Shown here: one piece after another, positions 42,120-61,416 of the stretch | Numbering within the stretch: the first letter of the stretch is position 1 | Layout of the letters: each line of letters begins with the position of its first letter | Origin: a virus | Lineage: Duplodnaviria > Caudoviricetes | IMG/VR virus record: IMGVR_UViG_3300037067_013742 | Coordinates: 128,001 to 192,000 of that record | DNA: 64,000 nucleotides | Reading direction: 5' to 3' (one strand) | Notes under the pieces: model-generated | The model's input: the letters and a program-made list of their open reading frames with translations, nothing else | The model's database searches: none | Told to the model about the DNA's origin: nothing | Made by a program: the position numbers and the translations under genes

Positions 42120-42991
42120 TAGCGCTCCTGATAGGTTCCGAGGTAAACGTGCCTTGTTTGGGTAGGATCAACATTCCCCTGAGCGTCCATCTCGACTATG
42201 GCATAGCCCAGATCGATAGGGCTATAGTTACAGCCACCATCTTCTTCATAATCCATCGGATAACATAAGGCGCCTTCATCAATTAAAAGGCTTCCGTTAC
42301 GGTATGGGATTGTTCCGACCCTGTGGCTGTGGCCAGAGACGAGACACTGAAACTGAGTCCCTCTGTTAAGGAACCAGTTTGCAACATGGATAGCGTTAGA
42401 CATTGGCGCCTTACTAAAACCACGAAGTCTATGGGCGAAGATTGTCTTTCCGATTCTAATCCACCAGCCTCCAGTCTCGTCTCCGGCATACATAACGTTT
42501 GGGAGGTCAATAGTTGGTAATTGCTCTCCCTTCTCGTTAAATCTTTCCCCGTTAGCCAGATGACGGAGAGGGCTACCTTTAATAAGAAATTGTATTGTTG
42601 GGTTTAGCTTTCCAAGTTCTCGTGAGAATCTTCCGGCGTCGTGATTGCCATCGACTAAGATGACTCTGCCAAAGTGCTGGGCAGCTAGTCTAACGATGTC
42701 GCTGTTTGCCGAGTACTCTACGGCAAAGGGGATCTCTTTGCTCTTTGGAAATTGAGATATGAGGTTGCAATCAAACATATCTCCATTAATTACGAGGTAC
42801 TCCGCGCCAGAATACCTCTCGATTATGTCTTGTACCAAATCCTCTCTAACGAATGGTGTATGCAAATCTGAGATTGAGATTACTCTAATTCGCTTGCGGC
42901 CGATTGGGTGAAGCCTTGCTTCTTCTAAGTTTTGTAGCTTCTGTCTGTAGGCGTCACAATAGCGTTGTACTTTCTCTAACTTAGACATCAT
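42119..42991 (-). CDS. Calcineurin-like metallophosphoesterase
   Basis: SDLH, NGD, GNHD, H, GHSH. Confidence 0.85.
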   Translation of the reverse strand: MMSKLEKVQRYCDAYRQKLQNLEEARLHPIGRKRIRVISISDLHTPFVREDLVQDIIERYSGAEYLVINGDMFDCNLISQFPKSKEIPFAVEYSANSDIVRLAAQHFGRVILVDGNHDAGRFSRELGKLNPTIQFLIKGSPLRHLANGERFNEKGEQLPTIDLPNVMYAGDETGGWWIRIGKTIFAHRLRGFSKAPMSNAIHVANWFLNRGTQFQCLVSGHSHRVGTIPYRNGSLLIDEGALCYPMDYEEDGGCNYSPIDLGYAIVEMDAQGNVDPTQTRHVYLGTYQER

Positions 42992-44013
42992 CCCTCAGTT
43001 CTCAAAAGACTTCTTTTAATGATGGCCGATGCAAAATCTCTAGATTTCCCCTTTCGGCCAGGTAGGACTCGGAGGGCACCCATAAATAAAGGATATTTCA
43101 AATCCCACTCGCTGTCACTACCGATGTTCACAAGGTCAAACTTTTGGCCAACGATGACTGCGTATTGAACTTCCGCTTGTCCGGTTTCGTCATCTTCAGC
43201 TTCTCCGCCTCCAGACTTAGTAATATCTACCTTACCCGATATAGCATAAATGTTACCTACCTGTAGTTGGTCCTGAAGCTTCTCCCACATCTTTGGGAAG
43301 ATGACGACTTCGATACTAGCTGTCTTATCCTCTACCCTAACCTTTGCCATAAGTGTCTTCTTGCGAGTATTTATAATCTTTAGGGATGAAAGGATCCCGG
43401 TTATAAGAACCTTAGCATCTTGGTCTTCTCGCTTAACTAAATAGATCGGGACACTACTCTCTGGGACTTTTATCTCGTCAAGTGGGTGGCCAGAAATATA
43501 AGCATTTAAAAGCTCTCTTTGGTTTCGTAATCGTTCTCTTGGAGATAACGCGATTCTCTGTCGTGGTGGCTCCTGGGGTGGCTTGGGCTCGTCCTCCTCA
43601 TAGGAGGGAGGAGGCGGGGTTTCCTTTAGTATGAGTACTGGCTTACCGGGTTCCTTAGAAGTACTACTCGGATTTTTCGCCAGTCGGTCTTCCCATCTAC
43701 GATGCTTTTCTTGATACTCAAGAAGCTTCTCTTCATATCGTATCGTCTTCTCTTTATTTTTCTCGGCGATACTAGTGACTAGGTCAGAATACTTTCGCTG
43801 GGAGGATTCCTTCTGGTGAGTAAACCGTTCTAGTTTGTCTTTATAGGAGGCTAGGCCTCTCCTATATGTAACAAACTCCTTTGCATATTCAGCGGCCTCA
43901 AGCTCATTCATATCTTCTATAGAAGAGAAAGCACCAGCCTTACCTAAAACCTCTGCTGCCTTGGAGTTTATGTCTGTTTTTTCTAAGAGATCCTTTATAG
44001 AGTCAAATCTCAA
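42988..44013 (-). CDS. dnaE: DNA polymerase III alpha piece 4 (end of HhH region plus OB fold)
   Basis: FDSIKDL...KAGAF, YISGHPLD, MAKVRVEDKT..IEVVIFP. Confidence 0.85.
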   Translation of the reverse strand: MRFDSIKDLLEKTDINSKAAEVLGKAGAFSSIEDMNELEAAEYAKEFVTYRRGLASYKDKLERFTHQKESSQRKYSDLVTSIAEKNKEKTIRYEEKLLEYQEKHRRWEDRLAKNPSSTSKEPGKPVLILKETPPPPSYEEDEPKPPQEPPRQRIALSPRERLRNQRELLNAYISGHPLDEIKVPESSVPIYLVKREDQDAKVLITGILSSLKIINTRKKTLMAKVRVEDKTASIEVVIFPKMWEKLQDQLQVGNIYAISGKVDITKSGGGEAEDDETGQAEVQYAVIVGQKFDLVNIGSDSEWDLKYPLFMGALRVLPGRKGKSRDFASAIIKRSLLRTEG

Positions 44014-44423
44014 GTTTCCTCCGCATCTCTAAACTCTACTATCTTTTCCGCCATTGCTCGTGGCATTCCTTTGATATGACCTAACCCAAATCTTATAGCT
44101 TTGCCCTCTGGCTGATGGTCGACTCCAGATAGATTTATGTCTGGGGGTAGTATCTTTATTCCCATCCCCTTTGCGGACATTACGTACTGGATTATTTTGT
44201 CGTCGTCAGTTTCGTGAGTTAGCATTGCCGCATGGTAATGAACAGGGTGGTTAGCTTTTAGATAAGCGGTCCACATAGTTAAGTAGGCGTAAGCCACGCT
44301 ATGGGAGTTTCCGGAGATTACCCCATTGGCAAGAGCAAAGTTATGTTGCTCTCCTCTCATCCTGAGATTGAAAGTGTCTTCGATTCCCACCAGCTTAACT
44401 GAGCAAACTTTTAGCTTTTTCAT
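44010..44423 (-). CDS. dnaE: Split-intein C fragment fused to DnaE piece 3
   Basis: 39-aa IntC then SHSVAYAYL...YLKANHP, ILPPDINLS, IRFGLGHIKG. Confidence 0.9.
   Translation of the reverse strand: MKKLKVCSVKLVGIEDTFNLRMRGEQHNFALANGVISGNSHSVAYAYLTMWTAYLKANHPVHYHAAMLTHETDDDKIIQYVMSAKGMGIKILPPDINLSGVDHQPEGKAIRFGLGHIKGMPRAMAEKIVEFRDAEET
44307..44423 (-). mobile_element. Split intein C fragment (39 aa)
   Basis: MKKLKV...TFNL...HNFALANGVISGN followed by Ser. Confidence 0.9.
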
Positions 44424-45249
44424 ATTTCCTTACTAGTCTTAATCCATCTGAATCTTGATAGAGATACTGAATGATGAGGCGACAATCATCCTCACGGCTC
44501 CACTCTACATATGATAAGAGGGGACTACTTTGTTTGGCTGTCGGAAATTCGTAGGAGACCCCAAGAACCAGATGGAGTAAAAGAGATACTTGAGCCGTAA
44601 GGTATCGACTGCCCAAAAATCGGACACAGACCTTAGTTCCTGTCGAGTGTATATAAATACTCCCATCTCCATCAAGGTTTCCTCGTAAGACATGCGACTG
44701 GAAGATGGGGCTAACTATTGGAAGAACTTCCCTTCCTGTTTTTGCTTGAATAACTCCAAGGTTTCCCAGATCGCGGACCATTCTCGACGAAGAAACAATA
44801 AGCTGCGCCTGCTCTTGAGCCACTGAATAGTGGCCTTGTGAGAATTGTTTTTCGCGTGATGGGATGAGGCAGATTGATGAATTAGTACAAGTTTCTGTCT
44901 TTAGAAGATCAACAACCCACTGGTCACATCGAGCTAGTCTTATCCCGACTTGTAGCGGAGGATGAACCCAACCATCAGCAACAAGGAATCCTAGCAAATA
45001 AGCCTTTTCCTTAGTATCAATACTGGAGAAGTATTCGTGCTTTGTGGGCGAGTAATCTGTAACTCCACTTTTTCGGGGGATCTCCCATCTCCTTAAGATA
45101 TCGTAGATGGTCTTTGTCGTTTTTACCTTATGGTTAAGCTGCTCTAAAATCTTGTTTGCGGAGCATCCACTTTTATAAAGGGTAACGACGAGCTCTTCAT
45201 CGGCCGGTGTAATTATTCGACTTGGATATAGTCTTCGTTCGTGTGACAT
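44395..45249 (-). CDS. Free-standing LAGLIDADG endonuclease between split-intein halves
   Basis: YLLGFLVADG and VLRGNLDGDG. Confidence 0.85.
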   Translation of the reverse strand: MSHERRLYPSRIITPADEELVVTLYKSGCSANKILEQLNHKVKTTKTIYDILRRWEIPRKSGVTDYSPTKHEYFSSIDTKEKAYLLGFLVADGWVHPPLQVGIRLARCDQWVVDLLKTETCTNSSICLIPSREKQFSQGHYSVAQEQAQLIVSSSRMVRDLGNLGVIQAKTGREVLPIVSPIFQSHVLRGNLDGDGSIYIHSTGTKVCVRFLGSRYLTAQVSLLLHLVLGVSYEFPTAKQSSPLLSYVEWSREDDCRLIIQYLYQDSDGLRLVRKYEKAKSLLS

Positions 45250-45263
45250 AGTCTGAACAGATA

Positions 45264-46964
45264 TTAATCGGCAATCGAAATGATGTCAAGGTCTAGATCA
45301 AGTATTTCTCTTAGTGGGCGTTTTATCATATCGCCACAAAGGAACTGATGGTCCATTGTACAGGTTACTAAAGACCCGTCTGATAGCTCTATCTCGTAAA
45401 CTTCTTGCTTTCCAGTAGGGATAACTTCGAGACATTGATCTTGAACAATCTCGCGCTGTGAGTTGTAGCTAAGAAGTTCTGGTAGTTCGGTCTTGCCTAA
45501 TACAGAAAGTTGACCAATAGTCTTAGGTAGCCAATGTACACGAGGCTCTTGCTTACCAGGAAGCCAGGGACTGTCATGTGTTTTGACTAAGACCTCCGTA
45601 TTGGCAGAGAGGCAGGCATTAAATAGGTATTGGCCATAGTCCTTTAGCTGATCAAAAAGCTTCTCGGCCTGTATCTTGGTAAGCCCACCCTCTATCGCGC
45701 CAGCTATAAACTTGGGGGCTTCTGCGGCTAGCTTGTCTTGTTGCTTTTTGCCGAGCATCTTCATCACGGCATACGACTCTGGTGAAGTATAGCCACATAA
45801 ATCAGTGCAGATCTTCATAACCTGCTCTTGAAATACGACTACATTATAAGTAGGGGATAAGATCTTTCGCATGGTGTCGTTTAAGTAGACTGGGTCTTCT
45901 TTCCCCGAACGCGCATTGGCATATTGGTCAACTTGTCCGCTCGAGAGGGGACCAGGACGAAAGAGGGCTGAGGCAACGGAAAGGTCGTGGATGTTTTTTG
46001 GCTGGATCGCGACACAAAGCTCTTTAATTCCCTCTGAGCCACCTAGTTGGAATATACCGTCTAGATCCCCACGACAAATTAGGTCGTAGGCGGCCGGGTC
46101 TCCATCAGAGAGCTGTTCTAGATCAATATCGATATCTTCTCTCTTGAGAAGGTCTACACAAGTCTGGATGACTTTTAGAGTGCTGAGACCAAGGATGTCA
46201 AACTTTATAAGACCCGTCCGTTCTAGGTCTCTATAGTCAAACTGAGACGTTGGGTTGTCATCTTTGCCACGGTACAAGGGAACAAAATTGGTTACTTCTT
46301 CTGGTGCTATAACGACACCGCCAGCGTGGGTACCGTGCGACCTAACAATACCCCAAAGTTTTCTGACTATCTCAATAACGTCGGCGTATTTACTATCTAG
46401 TAGCTTAGGCGAGACTTTAGCCTCGTCGTCAAAGGAGGTCCACAGACCGGCAACTGGAGGGGGGACTAACTTTGCTAGCTCATCAGTAAACTCTCTAGGC
46501 TTATCTAGTACGCGGCATATATCTCTTATTGCCGATTTGGTTCGCATGAAACCAAGGGTCCCAACCCTAGCGACCTTGTTTTTTCCGTAACGGCTCTCTA
46601 GGTATGAGATTATTAGATCTCTATCAGAGGTATCGTAATCAATATCTGGTGGCGAGGCCCTGTCCTTTGACATAAATCTCTCGAAGGGGAGATCAAACTT
46701 AATTGGATCTACTAGAGTGATACCAAGGACATAAGCTAGTAATGACCCAGCTACCGATCCTCTGCCCGGCGCGGGAACGAGTCCCTGTTTCCTAACAAAG
46801 GAAGCTATATCCCAAACGATAAGGAAATAGGATGAGAAACCCAGGTGCTCAATAGTTTCTAGTTCAAAGTTTAATCTGTTTAAATATTCTAGGTTATCGC
46901 CGAAGCCTAAATCGTTTAGTCCTTGGTAGGCTTTTTTCCTTAGTAGTACTGTATTACTATCCAT
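45264..46964 (-). CDS. dnaE: DnaE piece 2 (catalytic palm/fingers) fused to split-intein N fragment
   Basis: YFLIVWD, GRGSVAGS, FERF, PPDIDYD, HAGGVVI, KFDILGL, RPGP, FQEQVM; start moved to ATG 46964 (TAATG overlap). Confidence 0.92.
   Translation of the reverse strand: MDSNTVLLRKKAYQGLNDLGFGDNLEYLNRLNFELETIEHLGFSSYFLIVWDIASFVRKQGLVPAPGRGSVAGSLLAYVLGITLVDPIKFDLPFERFMSKDRASPPDIDYDTSDRDLIISYLESRYGKNKVARVGTLGFMRTKSAIRDICRVLDKPREFTDELAKLVPPPVAGLWTSFDDEAKVSPKLLDSKYADVIEIVRKLWGIVRSHGTHAGGVVIAPEEVTNFVPLYRGKDDNPTSQFDYRDLERTGLIKFDILGLSTLKVIQTCVDLLKREDIDIDLEQLSDGDPAAYDLICRGDLDGIFQLGGSEGIKELCVAIQPKNIHDLSVASALFRPGPLSSGQVDQYANARSGKEDPVYLNDTMRKILSPTYNVVVFQEQVMKICTDLCGYTSPESYAVMKMLGKKQQDKLAAEAPKFIAGAIEGGLTKIQAEKLFDQLKDYGQYLFNACLSANTEVLVKTHDSPWLPGKQEPRVHWLPKTIGQLSVLGKTELPELLSYNSQREIVQDQCLEVIPTGKQEVYEIELSDGSLVTCTMDHQFLCGDMIKRPLREILDLDLDIISIAD
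45267..45614 (-). mobile_element. Split intein N fragment (116 aa)
   Basis: CLSANTEV..., GKQEVYEIELSDGS, TMDHQF (block B TxxH), acidic C-terminus then stop. Confidence 0.9.
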
Positions 46965-47905
46965 TAATCCTCGTCTATTTCTCCCACTAAGAACTGTCCA
47001 CAAGCTGCCATAATCTCGCTACCTGGCGAGGCCTGAACTTTAACCTTTTTTAAATCTCTAGTGAGCCGCTTGGCGATTTTGTCAAACTTAGAAGACTCCT
47101 GAAAAGGAGAACCATTACAGTGGTTGTATCGAAGTAGTCTGAATTCGCAGTCTTCTAATCTCGTGGCCATTAGGTCTACTACGGCATCTATCTCTTTCTC
47201 AGAATCGTTCACGTCTTCGAGTAGTAGGTGATGCACGATCATCCCTGTCCCGTCCAAAAAGTGGTGCAACCTTGAAAGTTTTTCTATGACATCTCTACTA
47301 CCAGGTATCAAGAAGTTTCTAGTTTCTGGTACTGCGGACATCAGCGAGACAAAGAACCTAACCATTGGTCTATCAAGACTCGATAGCCGTTTTAGTTCTT
47401 TGTTGTATAGGTGATACCTTTGTAGATAGTCATTAAGACCTCTTATATCTGCTATAGAGATAGCAGAGGGGAGGCTGGTCCCGATGTCAATTGTATCTAG
47501 AGAAGAAGCTAGCCCCTCTTCTAAAACATGGGAGATTATAAGCTGGGAGATTACTCCAACCATCTCTCGATGGAGTAGTGGCTCTCCCATGCTCATCCAG
47601 GAGAGCTTCAGCGCCTTCTCTTTTGCGGCGGGTACCTCCGTCGTAAAGTTTTGAATAGCCTCATTTATGTTAGCGACGGTACTAACTCTGTCTACTGGTT
47701 TATAACTAGTCCCTTTTGTATGAAGCATACAGAACTTACAGTTCATCTGACATCCGTAGGATGACGAGACGAAGACTGTGTACTTATCTCTTGCTTGTTT
47801 ACTAACGCCTCTATCGCAATTTGATAGAAGTTTAATGGCTGTCTCTGTCCCGTTAGAGTGGATATACTTATAGACTTCTCTATTTTCCGTGTGCAGAACT
47901 TTCAA
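46964..47905 (-). CDS. RlmN/Cfr-like radical SAM protein
   Basis: VSSSYGCQMNCKFC, MSMGEP, DVNDS, AACGQ. Confidence 0.8.
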   Translation of the reverse strand: MKVLHTENREVYKYIHSNGTETAIKLLSNCDRGVSKQARDKYTVFVSSSYGCQMNCKFCMLHTKGTSYKPVDRVSTVANINEAIQNFTTEVPAAKEKALKLSWMSMGEPLLHREMVGVISQLIISHVLEEGLASSLDTIDIGTSLPSAISIADIRGLNDYLQRYHLYNKELKRLSSLDRPMVRFFVSLMSAVPETRNFLIPGSRDVIEKLSRLHHFLDGTGMIVHHLLLEDVNDSEKEIDAVVDLMATRLEDCEFRLLRYNHCNGSPFQESSKFDKIAKRLTRDLKKVKVQASPGSEIMAACGQFLVGEIDED

Positions 47906-47906
47906 A

Positions 47907-48743
47907 CTATAGCCTCCATTGCGAATCTCCTATTGTAAGACATTGGTGCGGACATCCAACTGGATCGTTCCCACTAGGGCCAGTAGCACAAGATGAAAAG
48001 CATGGCCATGCATTTGGGATAAGTAGTCCGGCTGTTCTCTGGTTGTCTAATCTACCAGAAATAGGAGATAGGTGTCGGTGGTACTGGCTTTGGTCTACTA
48101 GATTCCATAAAGGAGAAGTTCTAAAAAGTCTTATCGGGGTTTCGAGGATGGGGATTTGGGCTTCGGCCGCCAGGATAATAAGCTCTTCTTGTTTTGCGTC
48201 GAGAGTATTACCTTGGGGAAATTTGGCTGTATTTAGCCGAAGGGAGGTTCTAAGTCCGGCTGTATTAGCCTTAAATAGATTAATAAGCCTGCTTAGTTGT
48301 GGCTCATTGGAAGCTAGGGCCGAAGTAGAGACTTGAACTATGGCTTCACTTTTTAGGAGCTTTGTAAGGATTGTGTCCTGTAATTCCGTATAGATCTTCG
48401 TTACGATCACGGGAGTCTTTCCATGATCGTGAAGTATCTCGCAGACTCTTGCAGAGGTTTTCCAGTTTAGGGAGGGATCAGAAATGCATCCAACTCTGAT
48501 CCAGGGGAGGCTATAGTTCTTTAACTGCCGCGAAAGAAACTTCTCGTCTAGGGGTCTCTTTACTGGATGAAAGAAATTAATCCCAACGCGGGCAGCTCCC
48601 TTGGCTGCATAGCAAGGGGCATCCTTCAGTTCGCATCCTGGGCAGCCACGATGAACGTCTATCGTTCCTGCTTCGCCTGTCTTCTTGTTATGTTGGATTG
48701 CAATCTTGGTGGGGCAGTAGTACTTCGAATTGTTTTGAGCCAT
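47907..48743 (-). CDS. Radical-SAM-like protein with atypical Cys spacing
   Basis: RGCPGCELKDAPCYA, RVGCISDP, IVTK (SPL-like); extra C-terminal Cys cluster. Confidence 0.5.
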   Translation of the reverse strand: MAQNNSKYYCPTKIAIQHNKKTGEAGTIDVHRGCPGCELKDAPCYAAKGAARVGINFFHPVKRPLDEKFLSRQLKNYSLPWIRVGCISDPSLNWKTSARVCEILHDHGKTPVIVTKIYTELQDTILTKLLKSEAIVQVSTSALASNEPQLSRLINLFKANTAGLRTSLRLNTAKFPQGNTLDAKQEELIILAAEAQIPILETPIRLFRTSPLWNLVDQSQYHRHLSPISGRLDNQRTAGLLIPNAWPCFSSCATGPSGNDPVGCPHQCLTIGDSQWRL

Positions 48744-48845
48744 ATCACTCTTATGATCTTCATGGTTTCTCCAAATGAATAGTCATATGGTGACATCTTC
48801 TGGCTCTTCTTATCTCTTCTAAATCACTATTCTCTTACGGCCTTT

Positions 48846-49208
48846 TTAGCCGGTACCAACCTCTCCGTATAGGAGCTGGGGAGTGCGAGGATCTATCTCC
48901 ACTCCTAGTTTCTTTGCCTCTCTTATAAAGAGCTCTCGGAGCTGTGATAAGGTAAGGTTTTGTTCTAAAAGCTTCTCAATAGGAATGCCGATATAGGAGG
49001 GTTCGTCTCCACCAAGAACTTCTATAGTCGTTTCCACGGCTACATCAAAGACTCCATGGCCACTGTAGCATTCATTATCTTCCCAGTCGGGTATAAGAAC
49101 TTCCAGTAATTCTTGGAATTTTCTCCCCTCCCGGCTATATCCAGATAGTCCAACTATCATAAAGCTAGAGCTGCTTGAGTTACTTACCAACCCGTTTCTT
49201 ATCTTCAT
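48846..49208 (-). CDS. SNSSS-motif family protein 1
   Basis: MKIRNGLVSNSSSSSF. Confidence 0.75.
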   Translation of the reverse strand: MKIRNGLVSNSSSSSFMIVGLSGYSREGRKFQELLEVLIPDWEDNECYSGHGVFDVAVETTIEVLGGDEPSYIGIPIEKLLEQNLTLSQLRELFIREAKKLGVEIDPRTPQLLYGEVGTG

Positions 49209-50092
49209 TCTACTTTCCTCACTAACCTTGCTCGACCTCTTCTCTGGCCATCGAGACCAACATTTTTAGCCCTCATAGTTTCAAGAGCTTCTTTTTGGGC
49301 TGCGCCAATAAAGTTATCTATAAATGATATTGGAACAGACTTTCCAGAAACTAACTTATTGAGTAATGGCATTACAGTCTTTTCTTTCTTAATGAATGTC
49401 CAGTCTTCATGTAAACCCGTTACTCCGTTCCAAAGGAGTATCCTAATCGTTTCTGGGATAACTGAGGCAAGGTTAGCTGGTAGCGTGTTTCTCTTAAGGA
49501 TTTCACCTAAGATCCATGCCCTATAGATTCTAAAGCTGCCAAATAGAGATGTGCTGTTACCATCTAAACACTTAGATGTTCTTATCAATGCTTTTATAGC
49601 GCCTCTAGGAAGAGCAATAGCGTGCTCAAAGGCTTGAAGTTCTTCTTCCGTAAGGCTGGCGCAAACTTTTGGTGGTAGGTTTAGATCCCTTTTGCTATCT
49701 GTTGGAGTAGTCATTATGTCATATGCTTGTGATGGGTCTAGTACTATTGGTGCTTTGTCGAAGCCAAAAGTGCCTCTTGCGCATTTCCATCCGTAACTTT
49801 CGAGGGATTTTATTACATCGTTGTACTTTGTCTCGGCCACTTCTTTATTAAGGGGGATCCACCTTGTTGTCGTTTCGCCGTCAGAGAGGGTAACTTCATA
49901 GAGGGTCTTTCCGTCATATTCAAACCTTGATAAGGATACCCTCTTCTGCTGCGAAATAAGACTGTGGGTATAAGTAGCCTCCTTCTCGCAGAATGGTGCA
50001 TGGGATTGGTAGAAGGGGCTTCTGACTATCTTCTCTTTGGGCTCGATGACTCCCCAAGATACAGGGATAGTAGTATTCTTTGACTTTTCCAC
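49205..50092 (-). CDS. Hypothetical protein
   Basis: 295-aa ORF coupled to neighbours. Confidence 0.55.
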   Translation of the reverse strand: MEKSKNTTIPVSWGVIEPKEKIVRSPFYQSHAPFCEKEATYTHSLISQQKRVSLSRFEYDGKTLYEVTLSDGETTTRWIPLNKEVAETKYNDVIKSLESYGWKCARGTFGFDKAPIVLDPSQAYDIMTTPTDSKRDLNLPPKVCASLTEEELQAFEHAIALPRGAIKALIRTSKCLDGNSTSLFGSFRIYRAWILGEILKRNTLPANLASVIPETIRILLWNGVTGLHEDWTFIKKEKTVMPLLNKLVSGKSVPISFIDNFIGAAQKEALETMRAKNVGLDGQRRGRARLVRKVE

Positions 50093-50096
50093 CAGA

Positions 50097-52680: not shown

Positions 52681-52692
52681 TACTCTTCTCTC

Positions 52693-53115
52693 CTAAAAGG
52701 CCTTGATTAGCTTTAGCTTGATGTTCTTCCCGTCAATTTTCTTCTCTACTCTATATCCCCGTCCTAACTTCTTTGCCTCTGCTTCATACTTTGCACAAGC
52801 TGCATGCTGGAGGAAGGTTTCGGATTTCTTCCGCCACCATTTCTGATCATAGTCAGAAACATGCACAGTTATCTTTCCATCCTTCTTCTCGAAGCCAATG
52901 TCATTCGAGGCTCCACCCGAAAGGAGCTTGTTAACATTAGCTCTACGGACTATCACATTGGCCTTTTGTCCACGCTTGCTTCCCTCGTAACCAACTAGGC
53001 TTTGGGGGATGTCGTGTATCTCTATCATTTCAGCGGGGATACCAATAGCAAGAAGTCCTTCGATTACATAGTCTATCTCTGTAATGTCTATTACAACTAT
53101 TTTGTAGGCGCTCAT
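52693..53115 (-). CDS. DUF1257/Ycf35-like protein
   Basis: GYEG..., SNDIGF, DY motifs; position upstream of Ycf46-like ATPase. Confidence 0.65.
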   Translation of the reverse strand: MSAYKIVVIDITEIDYVIEGLLAIGIPAEMIEIHDIPQSLVGYEGSKRGQKANVIVRRANVNKLLSGGASNDIGFEKKDGKITVHVSDYDQKWWRKKSETFLQHAACAKYEAEAKKLGRGYRVEKKIDGKNIKLKLIKAF

Positions 53116-53303
53116 TAGGCACCAACCTTTGTTGGGTTTTTTACCTTGGTCTTTGGCGTTTCTTTCTTGCGGCGATGCTCTATAACTTCTCCAAGTGAAT
53201 CAATCCACTTGGAAAGCATTTCGCAAGCATCTCCTTCAACACCAAATACTTCAGCCGTACTCTTGCCGCCAGGCTCAATGGTTATTTCTATTGTATGTTT
53301 CAT
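53115..53303 (-). CDS. DUF2997-like small protein
   Basis: IEITIEPGG...GVEGDAC....LG. Confidence 0.65.
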   Translation of the reverse strand: MKHTIEITIEPGGKSTAEVFGVEGDACEMLSKWIDSLGEVIEHRRKKETPKTKVKNPTKVGA

Positions 53304-53306
53304 TTA

Positions 53307-53660
53307 TCAGCCACCGTCAGATACACAAAAGCTAGAGCACTCATCGGGCTCGAATCCAGCAATGAAATCATTTATGCAAGATGACACGACGCCATAATGA
53401 TCGTCATCTTCTTCGTCGTCCTCTGGTTTTGGGAGCTCTATTTGGTCCCACAGAGAGTCACCACCAGCAGTAGAAAAATCTTTGATAACTACGCACTGGA
53501 TTCCAAAGACTATTGCGTCCTCTGTTGTAACCGCCTGATTTACAATAAATCTGGTCTTCGGATCTGTTTCGGAGAACTTCTTATCGAAGGCATCCTTTCG
53601 CATAATACATACGAAGGAGGATGAGCTGCTGTTACTAACTAGGCTTCGTCTAATCTTCAT
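53307..53660 (-). CDS. SNSSS-motif family protein 2
   Basis: MKIRRSLVSNSSSSSF. Confidence 0.75.
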   Translation of the reverse strand: MKIRRSLVSNSSSSSFVCIMRKDAFDKKFSETDPKTRFIVNQAVTTEDAIVFGIQCVVIKDFSTAGGDSLWDQIELPKPEDDEEDDDHYGVVSSCINDFIAGFEPDECSSFCVSDGG

Positions 53661-53662
53661 GC

Positions 53663-53818
53663 TTACCTCTTTTGTTCAATGATAGTCAGAAGTGCCTTAA
53701 GGGCAGTAACCGGTGAATCTCCAAGGCCTTCTTCTGGAACGATCCAATCTTCATCAACCCAGGCGGACCAGCATTGTCGGTCATAAGACCAAGCAATGTT
53801 AAATGTATAATCTGGCAT
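53663..53818 (-). CDS. Small HicB-like protein (51 aa, not in ORF track)
   Basis: GGAG SD; W.A.V...GLGDSPVTAL pattern. Confidence 0.4.
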   Translation of the reverse strand: MPDYTFNIAWSYDRQCWSAWVDEDWIVPEEGLGDSPVTALKALLTIIEQKR

Positions 53819-53826
53819 TCTATCTC

Positions 53827-54279
53827 CTAGAAACTATGGCCCAAGGGAAGGATCCTACTGTCTTCTCCAGTAAGGATAACGACATATGGGCCTTTAGACT
53901 CTGGGTTTAGTTCCATTATCTCGTTCATCCCACAGAGCGAGCAGATTCCATCCCAGGCAGATATGTTTCGTTCGTCATTTGGAATTAGGATTCTAGCAAA
54001 TCCAGATTCTGGGAATCTTATGTCCATCTGATGGAAGGTAAAGAACTCTGATGAGTTTTTATTCTCTACAATTAGGGTAACTGAGGCTGGAAAGTCGAGA
54101 AGGTCTTTCGGCGTCTGGTCTGGAAGACCCATAAATCCTCGAAGGAATTTATTAAACGTGGGCTGAAAGATAAAAGGTTCTGGCTCAGAAAAGACTGGGG
54201 CTTGTAGTAGTAGGAAGCTTGCTTTACAGATTAGATTAAACTTCTTTAGAACCTGGATCTCTATCTTGTTCGCCCGCAC
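53827..54279 (-). CDS. Hypothetical protein
   Basis: ORF in array. Confidence 0.5.
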   Translation of the reverse strand: MRANKIEIQVLKKFNLICKASFLLLQAPVFSEPEPFIFQPTFNKFLRGFMGLPDQTPKDLLDFPASVTLIVENKNSSEFFTFHQMDIRFPESGFARILIPNDERNISAWDGICSLCGMNEIMELNPESKGPYVVILTGEDSRILPLGHSF

Positions 54280-54448
54280 TTCCTACCTCCACTATCTGGA
54301 CACGAAGAGATCCTAGCTCTTCAAGTAAAAGATTCATAGACTCTCTCTCTTCGTAATGTCTTCGGCCTATTAACTCTTGCTTTCGTCTTTCGAGGATCAG
54401 GCACCTATCGTCTATGATTGCTAGGATTTGTTTGAATGATTTATTCAT
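54236..54448 (-). CDS. Hypothetical protein
   Basis: ATGA coupling to upstream gene. Confidence 0.45.
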   Translation of the reverse strand: MNKSFKQILAIIDDRCLILERRKQELIGRRHYEERESMNLLLEELGSLRVQIVEVGSAGEQDRDPGSKEV

Positions 54449-55197
54449 CGTATTGGTGTAACTACTTCCTTAATTGAGTCTTTCCACTGGATTCTAGGAG
54501 TATCTTTTAGCTCATTATAGATTCTAAAGATATGCTCGTCTCTCTGCCCCTCTTCTATTCTTTGAATTTCTTCCCTTGTAACGCCGCCAACCCTCTCGGC
54601 GATCTTATTCATCTTACCAATCCAGATATCTCCAGTACAGTAAGGATGGAGATACATGGCATCACTTACTACGTTAGGAGAATCTAGCATTGGCTCCATA
54701 GAGACAGAGGTTTTATATCCAAGGGTAAAAGCGGTTACCAGACAGGAGAACCTTTCTTCGAAAGGTGGAGCACCAGGTTCCCAGGTCTTTAGGATTTCAT
54801 TATTTCTACATCCAATAGTGAATCTAAAAACTACCTTATCTTTATAGTCTTCTAGACAATCATATAGCTGAAGCATACAGCTTAATCTTGGTTTGCTGGT
54901 AATGAGAACTTCATTCCCCGCGCCAAGAAGATTTAGTATTGCTCCCTTACATTCGGAGAAATTCTCTGGGAAAATATCATGCGCTGATGGGAACATTACG
55001 ATTCCGTCGTAGAGCTTACGTTCGTCCTTCTGATTTCTCTTTGAGCGGGGCATCTCAGTCCATTCGGCAAAAGTAGATATCTCTCGACGTAGAACGGCCA
55101 TCTTTCTTGAGTAACAGTATTGGCATCCGTTAGGACAATTGGTAGAACAGTTAATTCCCTTGCTTGCCCACTCATAAATTCCGGTTGTCTTCTTCAT
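54445..55197 (-). CDS. Radical SAM protein (DUF5131/Gp37-Gp68-like)
   Basis: W...NC..NCPNGCQYCY, SVSMEPML. Confidence 0.7.
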   Translation of the reverse strand: MKKTTGIYEWASKGINCSTNCPNGCQYCYSRKMAVLRREISTFAEWTEMPRSKRNQKDERKLYDGIVMFPSAHDIFPENFSECKGAILNLLGAGNEVLITSKPRLSCMLQLYDCLEDYKDKVVFRFTIGCRNNEILKTWEPGAPPFEERFSCLVTAFTLGYKTSVSMEPMLDSPNVVSDAMYLHPYCTGDIWIGKMNKIAERVGGVTREEIQRIEEGQRDEHIFRIYNELKDTPRIQWKDSIKEVVTPIR

Positions 55198-55212
55198 TTA
55201 TACTTTCCGATC

Positions 55213-55707
55213 TTAATGGTTATCGTTGTCTGTATGAATGTAGCTATCAGGAGAGAAGATAAATCTTTCTAGTTCCTCTGGGGAGTCAAACATCTTAATG
55301 TTTTGACCCTCTTCTGCGTTAGACTGATGATCTATATATCCGTAGGGTGATGAATTAAGTGGCTCATAATCATTAGTAAGATTCCACTCAATTTTCTTCA
55401 CTCCGAGGTTCTTCTTAAGAATAGCTTCTAGCATCTTTAGCCATTGATCAGCGATGTAATTAGTCTTCTTATCTTTCTTCCAGTCAGCTTGAGATCTTTT
55501 GCCGCAGATCTGTAGATAGGCAAAGTTGATTAGTGAGCCAAGATCTTTATGGTCTTCTGGCTCCCAACCAAACTCTGTCGTCCCGCCCAGGTCGTCCGGA
55601 ACCTGAAGAGTATCTTTCCCAAGTAGTACAACCTTGGGCCTCTTATTTCCAATGACTACAAAGGAACTGCTAGAGCTATTACTCACTAACCCGGTTCTAA
55701 TCTTCAT
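55213..55707 (-). CDS. SNSSS-motif family protein 3
   Basis: MKIRTGLVSNSSSSSF; EFGW, GYIDHQS, TDNDN. Confidence 0.75.
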   Translation of the reverse strand: MKIRTGLVSNSSSSSFVVIGNKRPKVVLLGKDTLQVPDDLGGTTEFGWEPEDHKDLGSLINFAYLQICGKRSQADWKKDKKTNYIADQWLKMLEAILKKNLGVKKIEWNLTNDYEPLNSSPYGYIDHQSNAEEGQNIKMFDSPEELERFIFSPDSYIHTDNDNH

Positions 55708-55719
55708 TAGCTTCCTCTA

Positions 55720-56190
55720 TCAGCCGTTATACCAAGCATCTTCATAGGTTCCAAACTTTATATCTGGACCAAGAGCCTCTTTTAGTGTGGCTTCTACCCT
55801 AGCCTTGAATTGGGCTCCAGTCTCATCATCCTTAACTGAGTCCCAGCTCTCTCCGAAGTAGAAGTAGTCTTCTCCCCTGCCCTTTTGATCCTGGCCTACG
55901 ACTTGGTTTAAGGTTTCTCCCAAGTCTTGACTTACATAAGTATCAATATCAGCATCAGTATATGGTTCTTCCCTAGGTGCGTCGTAGGGATAAGTCTTAC
56001 CTGGGTTATCCTTTAGCCACTGCTCTCGAAACTTTATGTTGCCTTGGACTTCATCGTTCATTGCCTGCAGAGTCTTAACTCGGTTGGCTACTGTTAGTAA
56101 CCTCAAAGCTTCCTTCTCGTTTAGACATACTCCATAAATTAAGAAGGAAGAGCTGCTGCTGTTACTGACCAAACCCTGTCTTATCTTCAT
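55720..56190 (-). CDS. SNSSS-motif family protein 4
   Basis: MKIRQGLVSNSSSSSF; KDDET..QFK.RV. Confidence 0.75.
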   Translation of the reverse strand: MKIRQGLVSNSSSSSFLIYGVCLNEKEALRLLTVANRVKTLQAMNDEVQGNIKFREQWLKDNPGKTYPYDAPREEPYTDADIDTYVSQDLGETLNQVVGQDQKGRGEDYFYFGESWDSVKDDETGAQFKARVEATLKEALGPDIKFGTYEDAWYNG

Positions 56191-56199
56191 TTGTATCTC

Positions 56200-56589
56200 C
56201 TATGAGTAAACCGTAAAGTCATGTAGCTCGCATTCGGTTCCCGGCCCAAAAAGCTCTACGGCTTCCTTATCCACCCGCTCCATAAACTCCGCCTTTGTCT
56301 CATCATCCTTCATGGAGTTAAAGGGGTGGTAGCCCCAATAGACATAGTCTTCATCGTCGGCAATAAAGCCTAGCTTGGCAAGAGCCTCTTCAGGAATGGC
56401 ATCAAGTAACTCCTCTGGGCTATACTCATAATAGCTCTTACCCAAAGCTACTCTTTGTATTGATAGAAGTTCTCGAAGCTTTCCTTCTTTTAGAACGGCG
56501 GCTATGGCCTCATTTAGATGCATCTCTACGCCATAAATTACATAGGATGAGGAGCTCGAGTTACTAACAAAAGAGTTTCTGATTTTCAT
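56200..56589 (-). CDS. SNSSS-motif family protein 5
   Basis: MKIRNSFVSNSSSSSY; KDDET..EFM.RV. Confidence 0.75.
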   Translation of the reverse strand: MKIRNSFVSNSSSSSYVIYGVEMHLNEAIAAVLKEGKLRELLSIQRVALGKSYYEYSPEELLDAIPEEALAKLGFIADDEDYVYWGYHPFNSMKDDETKAEFMERVDKEAVELFGPGTECELHDFTVYS

Positions 56590-56996
56590 TAGCGTGTTTT
56601 ATCCTTTACTAAAATTAGGTCTGGGGTTCTAATCTCTAAAGTCATCTTGCAGATGGCTTCTTCTATTCCCTCGCCATCATCTGATGCGGAGCCATACCAA
56701 ATCTTAAAGCCATTGTGGATTAGTGCTACGAACTCATCCAGAAGCTCATCTTCTTCACAACAGTAGTCTTCACCACAGAGGTCGGCTATTGTTGTATATG
56801 GCTGCTTGGCTTCTCCGTTCCATCTAGCTGTGACCTCTTGAAAGAAGAAGCTTGCCATCTCTTCTGCTAATGGTCTTAGTGGAGAGGTTTCTGGAACGTC
56901 AAAAGCCTCTAGAAGCTTTTCTTCTGATAGTTCTTTTGCGGCAATCCAAAAGGAGGAGCTACTACTATTGCTGACAAGACCATTTCTTATCTTCAT
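56589..56996 (-). CDS. SNSSS-motif family protein 6
   Basis: MKIRNGLVSNSSSSSF. Confidence 0.75.
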   Translation of the reverse strand: MKIRNGLVSNSSSSSFWIAAKELSEEKLLEAFDVPETSPLRPLAEEMASFFFQEVTARWNGEAKQPYTTIADLCGEDYCCEEDELLDEFVALIHNGFKIWYGSASDDGEGIEEAICKMTLEIRTPDLILVKDKTR

Positions 56997-57000
56997 ATTC

Positions 57001-57471
57001 TTATCCCTTTACGAACTTTAGGAAGTCTCTATAGGTCTTAAACCTGGTCTTTAGCTTTTCTATCTCATCAATAAGGTTTAGAGAAAATTTCTGGCATATA
57101 TGTGCTGTGTATTCGTGGTTATATAACTTCTTCCTTCTTCTATTGAGCTTCTTTACTTCTTCGAATACTTCCGCGCGGGGGATTTTGTATTCCTTTAGAA
57201 AGAAGGCCGAGAGGTCATTATGTGATGGAGCTTGCCACTGACAAACCGGGCAGTACCTTTCTGGAACGTCATCATTATCGAAATCGTATGATTCATTACT
57301 ATCATCGATCTCTTCTAGGAGATCCTCTTCGCAGATGTTGTGATCATTTATACAGCTGTAGGTCTTCTGATCTCCATAGTCTCCGTCCCAGCCTGTTAGG
57401 GTTTCGCCGCAAACGTCACAGGTGAAAGATGATGCACTGCTATTACTTACTAGTCCCCGACGTATCTTCAT
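57001..57471 (-). CDS. SNSSS-motif family protein 7 with Zn-finger-like Cys/His
   Basis: MKIRRGLVSNSSASSF; CDVC, C..DH..C, CPVC. Confidence 0.75.
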   Translation of the reverse strand: MKIRRGLVSNSSASSFTCDVCGETLTGWDGDYGDQKTYSCINDHNICEEDLLEEIDDSNESYDFDNDDVPERYCPVCQWQAPSHNDLSAFFLKEYKIPRAEVFEEVKKLNRRRKKLYNHEYTAHICQKFSLNLIDEIEKLKTRFKTYRDFLKFVKG

Positions 57472-57745
57472 CTTTAGTCTCCTCTATAGATTTTCTTGGA
57501 TCTCCTGACCGAAGAGCATCCCCTAACTGATTTCTCTGTTTGGCAAGTTCGGTCATCTCTGTTCCGAGAGTTTTCATCTTGGCCGAGATGGCGTCCTCTA
57601 TATCTGGCCACTCACAAAGTTGGAGCAATTTACTAGATAGAGAAAAGTCTATAACCCCACTGGTTATATAGACGGCCGCTTCCATGATATCGGGGGTGTT
57701 AATAAAGAATGGCCCACGGGTTTCTATATCTTTCTTACTGTTCAT
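57443..57745 (-). CDS. Hypothetical protein
   Basis: ORF in array. Confidence 0.45.
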   Translation of the reverse strand: MNSKKDIETRGPFFINTPDIMEAAVYITSGVIDFSLSSKLLQLCEWPDIEDAISAKMKTLGTEMTELAKQRNQLGDALRSGDPRKSIEETKDEDTSGTSK

Positions 57746-58043
57746 TTAACGCCCTAACTATCTTCATTCTTTTGGCTAGATACCAAACGGCTCCCTGATG
57801 CTCTGGTCTATCTAAGGATTCAAATTCTTCTATCTCTACTTCTGCCCAAATCCGTCCTCGTGTAGAGAGGTGCGGAGCTTTTGGAGTGGCTACGCAATGC
57901 CAACCTGGCCTAAGGGCAAACCCATTAGTCTTGTGGCACTCGGCTTCTAGCCACTTGCCGATAGGAAGTCTTTGCTTTTTGTTAATAAATAAAGAAGTTA
58001 TCTCGCCGCTCTTGAGCTGGCGAACAAGCTTGTAGGCTTTCAT
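57735..58043 (-). CDS. Hypothetical phage protein
   Basis: MKAYKL..., RPGWH. Confidence 0.55.
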   Translation of the reverse strand: MKAYKLVRQLKSGEITSLFINKKQRLPIGKWLEAECHKTNGFALRPGWHCVATPKAPHLSTRGRIWAEVEIEEFESLDRPEHQGAVWYLAKRMKIVRALNEQ

Positions 58044-58056
58044 AGAATCTTCCTAA

Positions 58057-58719
58057 TTAGTTCTCTATCTCTTCTTTATAGATACCATCAAACAATATTG
58101 GAGTTCTTGACATAAAGTCTTTAACTAGGGGAATCATAACTTCTCTCATACGAGGATGGGCTTTCTTTGAAGTCCTAAGCGATAGTATATGTCTCCACTC
58201 CCGAACATCAGCACCGATAACAATCTCTGCCTTTAATCCTATGCATAGAGCCTCTCTAGCAATTTCGGCTGGGCAGCCCGCGTCTACTAAAGCGAGATAA
58301 GATTCTTGTGATTGCGCCCAGCTATCTAGGAGCATCGATTTATATAGAGCCCTCTTCTCAGAGTCTGCTATCTTCATGGCTAGTATTCGATCGGGATCGA
58401 TACAAGTAATCTCTCTACCAAATTTATCTTTAGCATAGTTACAGTAGCGAGTGCTTTCTTGTGCGAAGCTGGCTAAACGCATTCTGACGAGCTCGTGCGT
58501 AAATCCGCGATTAGAATAGAACTTAACCACTATCCAACCACCAAACTCTATCATCGCGTGGTGACCACTCTTGATGAGTCTCGCAACTAGTGATTCCGCC
58601 GATCCTTGCGAAATTTTGTCTTCACTTTTGTAGCACACGCGTGACGCTCTTTCTATAGATAGGAGTGGGTTTTCTGGGAATTCGAGAATTTCATAACTAG
58701 CATCTATAATATTTGGCAT
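58057..58719 (-). CDS. thyX: Flavin-dependent thymidylate synthase
   Basis: RVCYKS, GHHAMIEF, THELVRMRLASFAQESTRY, EIAR, WRHILSLR, AHP. Confidence 0.88.
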   Translation of the reverse strand: MPNIIDASYEILEFPENPLLSIERASRVCYKSEDKISQGSAESLVARLIKSGHHAMIEFGGWIVVKFYSNRGFTHELVRMRLASFAQESTRYCNYAKDKFGREITCIDPDRILAMKIADSEKRALYKSMLLDSWAQSQESYLALVDAGCPAEIAREALCIGLKAEIVIGADVREWRHILSLRTSKKAHPRMREVMIPLVKDFMSRTPILFDGIYKEEIEN

Positions 58720-58726
58720 TTCTTAC

Positions 58727-59356
58727 CTATATATCTATTACTACAATAGGGTTAACTGGTTCATAAGCTTCATTACATACGGCGGCATTAACATACCAAG
58801 TCCTGTTATTTGGGTCTTGCCACTTGATACCGCCCTGAAGATGCAGATGACCAAAGACATGTAGCTTTAACTTCATACCATTTAAAATGGTCCGAAGTTC
58901 TTCACATCCCTGAGGCGTATAGGTTCTTGGTACTCTATCTAATACCCCGTTAGGCGGTCCATGGGTTATTAGGATGTCTGTATCTTTTGGAATTTTGTCC
59001 CATACCTCTTTAATCTCCTCGCCTCTATATTTGTTGAAAGCCCAATAGTGTCCGCCAAACCAAGGAGTCCAGGGCGAGCCGTAAATCTTATAGCCATTAA
59101 ATGTAGTTTCACTATCTAGGAGTAGAGTACAGTGAGTAAGAATTTCTCTAGCTGCTTGGTCTGGGAGTGATCTATCGTGATTGCCGGGGATACATATAAC
59201 TGGAACTGTTTGTTTTCGGCACCACTCATTAAAAGATTCTAGAGATTCTAGCTCGCCAGTATTAGTTATATCTCCGGCATGAAGAATAAGATCACACCAA
59301 GGAACATAAACCCTATTTTCGAGGGTATGTGTATCCGCCAGACAACAGACTTTCAA
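58727..59356 (-). CDS. Metallophosphoesterase
   Basis: ADTH, HAGD, GNHD, THGPP, FGHLH; start moved to TTG 59356 after GGAGG. Confidence 0.85.
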   Translation of the reverse strand: MKVCCLADTHTLENRVYVPWCDLILHAGDITNTGELESLESFNEWCRKQTVPVICIPGNHDRSLPDQAAREILTHCTLLLDSETTFNGYKIYGSPWTPWFGGHYWAFNKYRGEEIKEVWDKIPKDTDILITHGPPNGVLDRVPRTYTPQGCEELRTILNGMKLKLHVFGHLHLQGGIKWQDPNNRTWYVNAAVCNEAYEPVNPIVVIDI

Positions 59357-59357
59357 T

Positions 59358-60227
59358 TTATTCCTCCGAATATGCGGGGAAGTGAGGGACATCAAGCTCT
59401 AGTTGAATATCAACCATTGCTTCGACGTCTAGAGTTCTACGGCAAGCCTCTTCACCAAATAAGCTGGCCATCTCTTCCGGGCTTTTGAAGTAAGTCTCTT
59501 CTGAATAATTCATAGAGAGAGTTTCTAGAGTCTGCCCGTGTTGGAGAGCCATCATAATATTGTGAATATAGTGGTCTTCCCGCCGAAGAAAGTGAGCATC
59601 ATTGGTAGGAATCCATGGTACATCAAACTTCTTAGAGAGCTCTTCTTGAAGTACGTTTACTCTCTTCTGAACTTCCATCCCGTGGTCCATAAACTCTAGC
59701 CAGAATCTTCCCTTGAAGGATTCTTTTAGCCGGCCCAACCATTTCTCCGCAACCTCTCGATGGCCTTCGGCTAGATTCCATGCAACTGGTCCTTTTATAC
59801 AGGCGCTAGTTACTATAAGGTCTTTGCCGATTTCCTCAATTAGTTTTAGTGAGACTCTAGGCTTGTAGTAAAAGCCTTCTAGAAATCCTATGCTACTAAG
59901 CTTATAGAGTTGTTTTACGCCCTCAGCATTTATAGCTAATAGGACTAGGTGATAGTTCTGCTGGGCTGGAACATCCTCGATCTTTTCTTTTAGAGTGTGG
60001 TCGTCAGTCGGCGAGATATAAATTTCACAACCAATTAATGGCTTTATCTCTTGTTTCTTACATTCTTCATAGAGTCTTATCGCGCTCGCCATTAGGCCAT
60101 GATCTGTAACCGCAACGGCTTTCATCCCAAGTTCTTTACAGCGAGCAACCAGCTCGGGAATTTTGATTATAGAATCAAGGATACTGCGGTCTGAGTGGAC
60201 GTGAGTATGGACTAGCTCAACTGTCAT
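59358..60227 (-). CDS. dnaE: DnaE piece 1 (stand-alone PHP domain)
   Basis: HVHSDRSILD, AVTDHG, KPLIGCE, HLVLLA, FYYKPR, TNDAHF; ends in the PHP-to-palm linker (PHFP). Confidence 0.9.
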   Translation of the reverse strand: MTVELVHTHVHSDRSILDSIIKIPELVARCKELGMKAVAVTDHGLMASAIRLYEECKKQEIKPLIGCEIYISPTDDHTLKEKIEDVPAQQNYHLVLLAINAEGVKQLYKLSSIGFLEGFYYKPRVSLKLIEEIGKDLIVTSACIKGPVAWNLAEGHREVAEKWLGRLKESFKGRFWLEFMDHGMEVQKRVNVLQEELSKKFDVPWIPTNDAHFLRREDHYIHNIMMALQHGQTLETLSMNYSEETYFKSPEEMASLFGEEACRRTLDVEAMVDIQLELDVPHFPAYSEE

Positions 60228-61095: not shown

Positions 61096-61416
61096 CTACC
61101 TATTTGGATTAGAAGAATCTATTAGGCGGGCTAGCTTCTCTTCTTCTTGGGCGCTTGGAGTTAGAACAGAAGCTCTCTCAGCTCGTATCTGAGCCTCTCT
61201 AGCCATCCTCATCTGTTGTTCTCTGACCTGATCGACTAGTCTCCTGTAGTCGGCGGCGATATCGTCTCTAACCCAGAGCTTTGTGCCATTCTTCATTGGA
61301 ATAAATCCCATCTCGCAGCCGCGTTGCTTGTGCATTCTCTTTGCGTCAGCGGCTTCTTTCGAGTCTCGACACTCTTGGTGATAGCCACAATACTTGCAGT
61401 GAAACATATACATCAC
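61096..61416 (-). CDS. Hypothetical Zn-finger protein
   Basis: CKYC...H...C. Confidence 0.5.
   Translation of the reverse strand: MMYMFHCKYCGYHQECRDSKEAADAKRMHKQRGCEMGFIPMKNGTKLWVRDDIAADYRRLVDQVREQQMRMAREAQIRAERASVLTPSAQEEEKLARLIDSSNPNR

Follow-up and report, generated by a model that had tools for sequence, protein, structure and literature searches.

The replicative polymerase DnaE is the textbook single-chain replicase of bacteria. In a survey of about 2000 bacterial genomes, PHP-Pol3-(HhH)2 (where HhH denotes the helix-hairpin-helix motif) was the common core of the enzyme, fragmentation was treated as a likely error, and no natural intein-less split was mentioned (PMC3919608). Viral C-family polymerases have been described with an N-terminal PHP on the same chain (PMC3201878). 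Among the described systems closest to the locus studied here are the 'fractured genes', in which a free-standing homing endonuclease gene lies between the halves of a split intein, as at three DnaE loci from ocean metagenomes (Dassa et al. 2009, PMC2677866). Here we analyzed the dnaE locus in a window of 64,000 nucleotides, bases 128001-192000 of an IMG/VR virus record of 229,064 bp that comes from a metagenome assembly and is rated complete by CheckV. Judged by gene order and sequence comparison, the dnaE of the window combines a fractured gene with an intein-less split polymerase, conserved in a clade of large uncultured phages. Neither a stand-alone PHP subunit nor a break in the middle of (HhH)2 was described in any paper that a full-text literature search turned up.

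As in the described fractured genes, the host gene is dnaE, and the N-part with the N-terminal intein half (IntN), the endonuclease open reading frame (ORF), and the C-terminal intein half (IntC) with the C-part are adjacent on one strand. The window differs in its endonuclease, which is LAGLIDADG-like and matches phrog_4645 rather than being GIY-YIG or Vsr-like, and in having two extra, intein-less breaks that are not described in PMC2677866. The split DnaE of cyanobacteria (Ssp/Npu; PMC2677866) is likewise a replicative DnaE in separate genes that is trans-spliced near an FNKSH motif. Its halves lie at distant loci, whereas those of the window are adjacent with the homing endonuclease gene between them, and after splicing the cyanobacterial enzyme is one chain that includes PHP and the C-terminus, unlike that predicted for the window. 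The predicted splice site of the window lies a few residues downstream, between FNA and SHS with Ser at +1, of the cyanobacterial site, which we take to fall between AEY and CFNKSH.

A split 'minimal' DNA polymerase III alpha has been reported from group 2.2 jumbo phages (Iyer et al. 2021, PMC7824862). It too is a jumbo-phage C-family polymerase in distant genes that is presumed to reassemble, but it consists of the catalytic module only, cut within, without PHP, HhH, or OB, and it accompanies a family B polymerase. In the window all DnaE domains are present, the breaks fall between PHP and palm and inside (HhH)2, and no PolB match was found in the genome. Intein-less splits of replicative polymerases appear among the examples cited in PMC2677866, namely gp43 of some T4-like phages and PolB of Methanothermobacter. 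As cited there, these are two-gene replicative polymerases whose products must assemble non-covalently, and they differ from the window in belonging to family B and in their break points.

Arrangement of the dnaE pieces

The DnaE pieces belong to a long run of minus-strand genes for replication and nucleotide metabolism. Five ORFs follow one another in the order of transcription: PHP, the core with IntN, the endonuclease, IntC with 98 aa of DnaE, and the tail. The first encodes a stand-alone PHP protein of 289 aa (59358..60227, minus strand, as are all features given here; PF02811, 2.7e-45; phrog_405 'DNA polymerase' positions 41-328), the N-terminal domain of DnaE and a candidate 3'-5' proofreading exonuclease subunit. 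It is separated from the core by 12.4 kb and about twenty genes. The N-extein of the core comprises 450 aa of palm/NTPase, thumb, and fingers (45615..46964; PF07733, 1.1e-76; PF17657, 5.4e-44; phrog_405 340-793). It is followed by IntN, 116 aa that start with CLS and end in a stop codon (45264..45614; recognized from the translation, with a weak PF14890 match), and by a free-standing homing-endonuclease-like gene of 284 aa (44395..45249; phrog_4645 'endonuclease', 4.4e-36). IntC, 39 aa ending in GN with Ser as the +1 residue (44307..44423; from the translation and alignment with relatives), is joined to the C-extein of the core, 98 aa plus TGA that complete the fingers/beta-binding region, add the first HhH, and end in ...FRDAEET (44010..44306; HHH_6 1-48 of 90; phrog_405 793-889). 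The C-terminal tail of 341 aa (42988..44013; HHH_6 50-84; PF01336; phrog_405 893-1055) begins with the second HhH and continues through a predicted long helix and a Pro-rich linker into an OB fold, after which a short conserved stretch follows.

A first-pass annotation of the window, made from the sequence alone, had described four DnaE ORFs that are colinear with DnaE and sum to about a full alpha subunit, with an intein at the middle junction only. Both statements hold. The ORF listing and the profile searches agree on pieces that are strictly colinear with DnaE and sum to 289 + 450 + 98 + 341 = 1178 aa, and both the PHP break and the break within (HhH)2 are intein-less.

The core ORF as listed spans 45264-47003 (579 aa), and its TTG start at 47003 is too early. 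We placed the start at the ATG at 46964, which forms a TAATG overlap with the stop codon of the upstream radical-SAM gene and yields 566 aa, that is, 450 aa plus the 116 aa of IntN. Gene callers give the same 566 aa, using the ATG start, for a core homolog that is 95% identical (P0278). A scan for promoters and terminators across 41.5-61 kb returned fewer sites than shuffled sequence, and it therefore provides no argument for independent transcription of the pieces.

Searches of the 229-kb genome gave no match for PolA, PolB, RNase_T/DnaQ, or DnaN (the beta clamp), while positive controls were detected. DnaE is therefore the only recognizable polymerase of this genome, and PHP the only recognizable canonical proofreader.

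A predicted three-chain replicase

We consider it likely, with a probability of roughly 0.8, that the locus encodes a DnaE-type replicase of three chains after trans-splicing. Four translation products would give the three polypeptide chains of a replicative C-family polymerase. Trans-splicing between YLFNA and SHSVAY would yield a 548-aa core (palm, thumb, fingers, and first HhH), equal to the single 544-550-aa gene of intein-less relatives. The PHP protein would dock non-covalently on the palm and thumb, at the position that PHP occupies in single-chain DnaE, and would supply metal-dependent 3'-5' proofreading. The tail would be translated by coupling from the TTGA overlap at its start, its second HhH would complete the (HhH)2 duplex-DNA-binding module by fragment complementation, and its long helix and Pro-rich linker would tether the OB fold. 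We infer the trans-splicing, the physical assembly, and the proofreading role of PHP; the association of the tail with the core is suggested by translational coupling and by a single (HhH)2 module distributed over two chains.

A two-chain model of PHP with the 450-aa N-extein, built with alignment inputs, reached an interface score (ipSAE) of 0.88, compared to 0.09 for the best control. In calibration, 58 of 80 solved complexes attained this ipSAE mark, as did 2 of 110 mismatched pairs. Three runs agreed in at least 97% of contacts, and the predicted local distance difference test (pLDDT) score of the partners was at least 92. Structures of single-chain DnaE have been solved, so this pass may be a memory of the intramolecular interface. 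The model shows that the interface between PHP and core is still DnaE-like, which is a likeness and not binding. The first-pass annotation had proposed three chains after trans-splicing, assembled non-covalently. The first part is consistent with intein-less relatives that carry a single core of 544-550 aa ending at the same place; for the second, the multimer prediction points in the same direction but is possibly an echo of solved DnaE.

Several observations weigh against a three-chain enzyme of this kind. IntC ends in GN and lacks the usual penultimate His, and splicing is predicted only. PHP, whose gene is 12 kb away from that of the core, could work as an enzyme on its own. In the core tree, a fused form (P0295) falls within the clade of split forms, so the split is reversible or arose more than once and is not strictly required. 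A tree of the tail alone is unresolved inside the group and therefore cannot tell whether the split arose once.

The predicted enzyme has the domain order of single-chain DnaE1 (T. aquaticus 2hpi/3e0d, M. tuberculosis 5lew/7pu7), namely PHP, palm/thumb/fingers, (HhH)2, and OB, as well as the nine PHP ligands and the catalytic aspartates. It differs in that the domains would be distributed over three chains and in that HhH and OB are set apart by an insertion, a predicted helix of 77 residues with a Pro-rich linker. Where the genome survey describes DnaE as one polypeptide (PMC3919608), the window has four ORFs, predicted to give three chains after splicing. The domains by which DnaE is recognized are found in the window: PHP, a Pol-beta-like palm with three catalytic aspartates together with fingers, and (HhH)2 followed by OB. 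In the Pol III core of E. coli (alpha-epsilon-theta), as in the enzyme predicted here, a separate polypeptide supplies proofreading; the E. coli proofreader is the DnaQ-fold epsilon, seated on an inactive PHP, whereas the separate chain of the window is PHP itself. Detachable PHP and (HhH)2/OB chains would make this polymerase a natural test system for the enzymology of DnaE, both for the structural and exonuclease contributions of PHP and for the role of the DNA-binding tail in processivity.

The middle junction is a fractured gene

The core aligns to residues 320-774 of E. coli alpha (E 5e-94), and the catalytic PDIDYD and KFDILGL motifs are conserved, aligned to residues that we take to be D401, D403, and D555 of the E. 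coli protein. The C-extein aligns to Taq alpha 816-910 and to E. coli alpha 759-854. The N-extein ends in YLFNA, and intein-less relatives read through this position as an uninterrupted Y(L/S)FN(A/K)SH. The exteins align without gaps to these relatives, and splicing would thus regenerate the sequence of the intein-less forms.

The intein halves are 116 aa (CLS...) and 39 aa long, the latter ending in ...HNFALANGVISGN before the +1 residue S. Of the splicing residues, Cys1, a TxxDH-like block, the terminal Asn, and the Ser at +1 can be recognized. The penultimate position holds Gly in place of His, as it also does in two relatives (contigs L006 and L016). The endonuclease ORF lies between the intein halves, and its 3' end overlaps the IntC ORF by 29 nt. 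Its match to LAGLIDADG_3 is weak (0.0056, below the Pfam cut-off). The same arrangement of intein and endonuclease occurs in contigs L006/L007 and L016/L017. On the evidence of gene order and translation, the middle junction is the known layout of a fractured gene.

Shortly before the endonuclease start there is a promoter-like site, TTGACA-17-TAATAT (10 of 12 matches; 45261-45289, minus strand); in the region such sites are no commoner than in shuffled sequence.

PHP is encoded by a separate gene

The PHP protein aligns to residues 6-287 of Taq DnaE (2hpi, E 2e-41) and keeps all nine metal ligands (H9, H11, D18, H43, E68, H93, C143, D210, and H212). The ligand set HHDHEHCDH is the signature of an 'active' PHP (PMC12926913). 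The genome holds a single PHP match and a single Pol3 core match.

Its nearest neighbors are likewise stand-alone PHP proteins, in about 35 clusters at 45-98% identity (255-321 aa, with PF02811 as the only domain), and core-attached PHP domains appear only below about 45% identity. Contigs of three relatives show the PHP neighborhood of the window, with genes for ribonucleotide reductase, PfkB, a dGTP-diphosphohydrolase-like protein, RecA, and uracil-DNA glycosylase (UDG), then PHP. The synteny extends as RecA-UDG-PHP ... AAA ... core, with the core about 14-15 kb after PHP in two relatives once overlapping loci of the same contigs were joined. In the third, the RecA-UDG-PHP neighborhood is kept and the stretch of contig examined ends short of the core gene. 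The gene immediately upstream of the core varies among relatives and is never PHP. Across these comparisons, the PHP break is real.

The most serious competitor of the three-chain reading, in our view unlikely, holds that PHP is not a polymerase subunit at all: it would be a free phosphoesterase or exonuclease, or act only transiently in trans, and the polymerase would consist of the PHP-less core and the tail. The distance of 10-15 kb between PHP and core in relatives fits this, as do the PHP-less cores of about 870-916 aa that are very common in related metagenomic phages and the fact that the gene coupled to the 3' end of the polymerase is a conserved metallophosphoesterase rather than PHP. 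The PHP itself is, however, of DnaE type. Its best matches are the N-termini of DnaE, and on phrog_405 it runs up to position 328, with the core taking over from 340. The genome has no other PHP match, and this one retains the C-terminal segment that leads into the palm in DnaE, with residues 278-288 inside the predicted interface. The two-chain model passes its controls, with the proviso that the pass may reflect solved DnaE structures.

In one relative (P0031, L011:5837-7042), the stand-alone PHP protein is 401 aa long and the PHP match starts at residue 137 (profile position 19). It thus carries an N-terminal extension of about 100-130 aa.

The break inside the HhH module

The tail starts at a TTG that overlaps the upstream TGA (TTGA), 4 nt downstream of a GGAGG. 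By alignment to solved structures, the break falls after approximately residue 854 of E. coli alpha (Taq 910), and the second HhH matches E. coli 871-891. The cut therefore separates the two HhH motifs of the duplex-binding module within the loop that connects them. Lengthening the AAA run at 44015-44017 by one A would join the two frames, so an error had to be excluded.

A word-indexed search recovered seven homologs of the tail (337-346 aa, 39-48% identity), which cover 97-98% of it. In an exhaustive search of 1.84 billion representatives, the top seven matches were again stand-alone proteins (313-350 aa), each starting at query residue 1-4, and fused forms of 916-1057 aa followed at 33-38% identity. 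The N-termini of 13 clusters, at 33-48% identity, fall on one alignment column, the residue before the F-x-S motif of the fused relatives (P0135-P0137), which is preceded by ...RxxG in P0135 and P0137.

The junction itself varies. In the window it is a TTGA overlap with a -1 offset. Both contig L002 and L006/L007 show a +1 offset and start the tail at an ATG, but the pieces are 1 nt apart in L002 and overlap by 11 nt in L006/L007. In L005, an 86-aa ORF (L005:9744-10004) stands exactly between the two mid-HhH pieces, with ATGA-type overlaps on both sides. With offsets of -1, +1, and +1 and an inserted ORF, no single frameshift mechanism fits all four junctions.

L016 and L017, contigs of one strain with about 89% DNA identity in the core, carry the GGAGGAAACTTGAGA junction in a form identical to that of the window. 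Seven of the eight substitutions flanking GGAGGAAACTTGAGA are synonymous in the frame of their own ORF. The ratio of nonsynonymous to synonymous changes (pN/pS, Nei-Gojobori) compared to L016 was 0.07 for the core with IntN, 0.04 for the endonuclease, 0.06 for IntC with the 98 aa, and 0.16 for the tail. By this measure, every piece compared with the L016 strain (core, homing endonuclease gene, IntC piece, and tail) is under purifying selection.

The alternative that a programmed -1 frameshift at TTGA fuses the 137-aa and 341-aa ORFs, leaving two chains, is very improbable. It draws on the 4-nt overlap of the two ORFs, with the downstream frame at -1, and on the GGAGG just upstream of the overlap; Shine-Dalgarno-like elements stimulate the known frameshifts in prfB and dnaX. 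The overlap reads G GAA ACT TGA, however, and contains no X XXY YYZ slippery heptamer. L002 and L006 would need a +1 shift, L005 has the 86-aa ORF in between, and the relatives have ATG starts of their own at the homologous position. Two further variants were considered and rejected. If the TGA at the junction were recoded as sense, only 5 more codons would be read before a TAA and the frames would stay unfused, and a +1 frameshift at the junction of the window meets a TGA after two codons.

An assembly or sequencing error as the origin of the break at 44010-44013 (such as a missing A in a homopolymer whose restoration would give a plausible ...EENLRFDS... in a record that is itself a metagenome assembly) has virtually no chance, and the same goes for a decaying pseudogene, given the same junction in two other contigs of a diverged strain, a break position common to 13 clusters at 33-48% identity, and a pN/pS of 0.06 upstream and 0.16 downstream of it. 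Comparative evidence thus strongly supports a real break in the middle of the HhH module and excludes an error.

The first-pass annotation had regarded both intein-less breaks as evolved, not erroneous, on the ground that each upstream piece ends in codons that create a Shine-Dalgarno sequence followed by a TTG start. The conclusion is strongly supported and the ground is only partly sound. Both quoted strings are present, but the TTG after PHP (59356-59354) opens a 209-aa phosphoesterase gene; that Shine-Dalgarno/TTG pair is therefore an ordinary gene boundary and uninformative on the split. It is the comparative evidence, not the motifs, that lifts the breaks above chance or error: the same column in 13 relatives, varying junctions, a diverged strain, purifying selection, and PHP synteny. 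Related phages do break at the same places, with the mid-HhH column shared by 13 and the stand-alone PHP kept in synteny. A fragmented dnaE in metagenomic phages should accordingly not be 'repaired' or dismissed as frameshift error in annotation, since the same break recurs throughout the clade.

Relatives and evolution of the splits

In many close relatives (48-61% identity) the core gene lacks an intein, is 544-550 aa long, and stops in the first HhH, within a few residues of the ...FRDAEET of the window. From their gene structures, a set of three genes is thus normal for the clade, and the intein with its endonuclease accounts for the fourth in the window. More distant relatives (about 40% identity) have a gene of 865-916 aa that lacks PHP but is otherwise fused. 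The separation of PHP looks older and wider on this distribution, and the HhH split younger.

In a tree of the core domain, the mid-HhH-split forms and two fused ones form a single clade with 100% support in the Shimodaira-Hasegawa-like approximate likelihood-ratio test (SH-aLRT). One of the fused forms, P0136, is basal. The other, P0295 (886 aa, on contigs of up to 4.7 kb), lies inside an unresolved fork among split forms, and its junction reads through. It may represent a re-fusion or a retained ancestral state.

The relatives came from protein databases. A blastn search of the locus against deposited phages gave no match, and a pattern search of viral contigs with the tail as query yielded no confirmed relative. 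In deposited phages, identity to PHP or core did not exceed about 39%, and the matches inspected were single ORFs. Two Pseudomonas phage matches to the core were rejected as split forms: Y1, an unverified record with a full-length ORF of 1185 aa, and Pbunavirus ORF74, a single gene of 1035 aa.

Inteins also occur at other sites of dnaE in the relatives, a split one in the palm in L002/L003 (L002:2766-5856) and a contiguous one in the fingers in L005 (L005:7319-9751). The clade shows several independent intein invasions of dnaE and is a possible source of split inteins. Inteins and fractured genes abound in it: an AAA ATPase with an intein is present in L005 (L005:1159-2493), and RecA occurs in pieces of 79 aa and 288 aa with a 345-aa ORF between them in L009 (L009:6470-8760). 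The RecA/UvsX ORF of the window (61413-63767) is 784 aa long, compared to about 350 aa in relatives, and therefore probably holds an intein.

Structure of the tail

The (HhH)2 module is split over two chains, with HHH_6 1-48 in the 137-aa ORF and 50-84 in the 341-aa ORF. When a profile was built from the tail family, it hit the OB domain of both Mtb DnaE1 (971-1087) and E. coli alpha (952-1057). An AlphaFold model of the tail had a mean pLDDT of 79, with a helix at residues 37-113 and the OB fold at about 158-295. The predicted layout runs from two short helices (HhH) through a single helix of 77 residues (pLDDT >90) and a Pro-rich linker to the OB fold, and a small conserved element closes the C-terminus. 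The DnaE pieces gave no sign of a C-terminal tau-binding domain. The 77-residue helix (residues 37-113) corresponds to 43675-43905 on the minus strand, and its charge pattern is conserved across the clade. As modeled, it could be a coiled-coil or dimerization element.

Metallophosphoesterase genes next to the dnaE pieces

A calcineurin-like metallophosphoesterase of 290 aa (42119..42991; PF00149) overlaps the end of the tail gene (ATGA). It directly follows the 3' end of dnaE, usually with an overlap, in seven of seven contexts, split or fused, one of them on a contig at about 40% identity. Homologs were found at L002:6875-7747, L005:11022-11888, L006:11025-11891, L013:12711-13586, and L014:3597-4475, and the catalytic motifs SDLH, GDxxD, GNHD, and GHSH are invariant in 6 relatives. 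A sequence comparison with the PDB returned nothing meaningful. In a fold comparison, the DP1 subunit of PolD scored Z 15.2 (root-mean-square deviation 3.8, 215 aligned), the B-subunit of Pol delta 14.9, and Mre11 14.2; these top folds are effectively tied, and LpxH-type enzymes come within 2 Z.

The 290-aa protein may be a polymerase-associated accessory nuclease. It is a tentative and rather doubtful extension that the clade has made a multi-subunit C-family polymerase out of the single-chain bacterial replicase, with PHP as a dissociable proofreader, an HhH/OB subunit with the predicted 77-residue helix for DNA binding or bridging, and the phosphoesterase as a fourth, nuclease-type subunit. 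If true, the architecture would be convergent on archaeal PolD and the eukaryotic B-family holoenzymes.

A second, smaller calcineurin-like phosphoesterase of 209 aa (58727..59356) is encoded next to the PHP gene; its translation begins MKVCCLADTH, and its TTG start lies 2 nt after the PHP stop codon. Relatives carry a homolog either as the next gene behind PHP or two to four genes further on.

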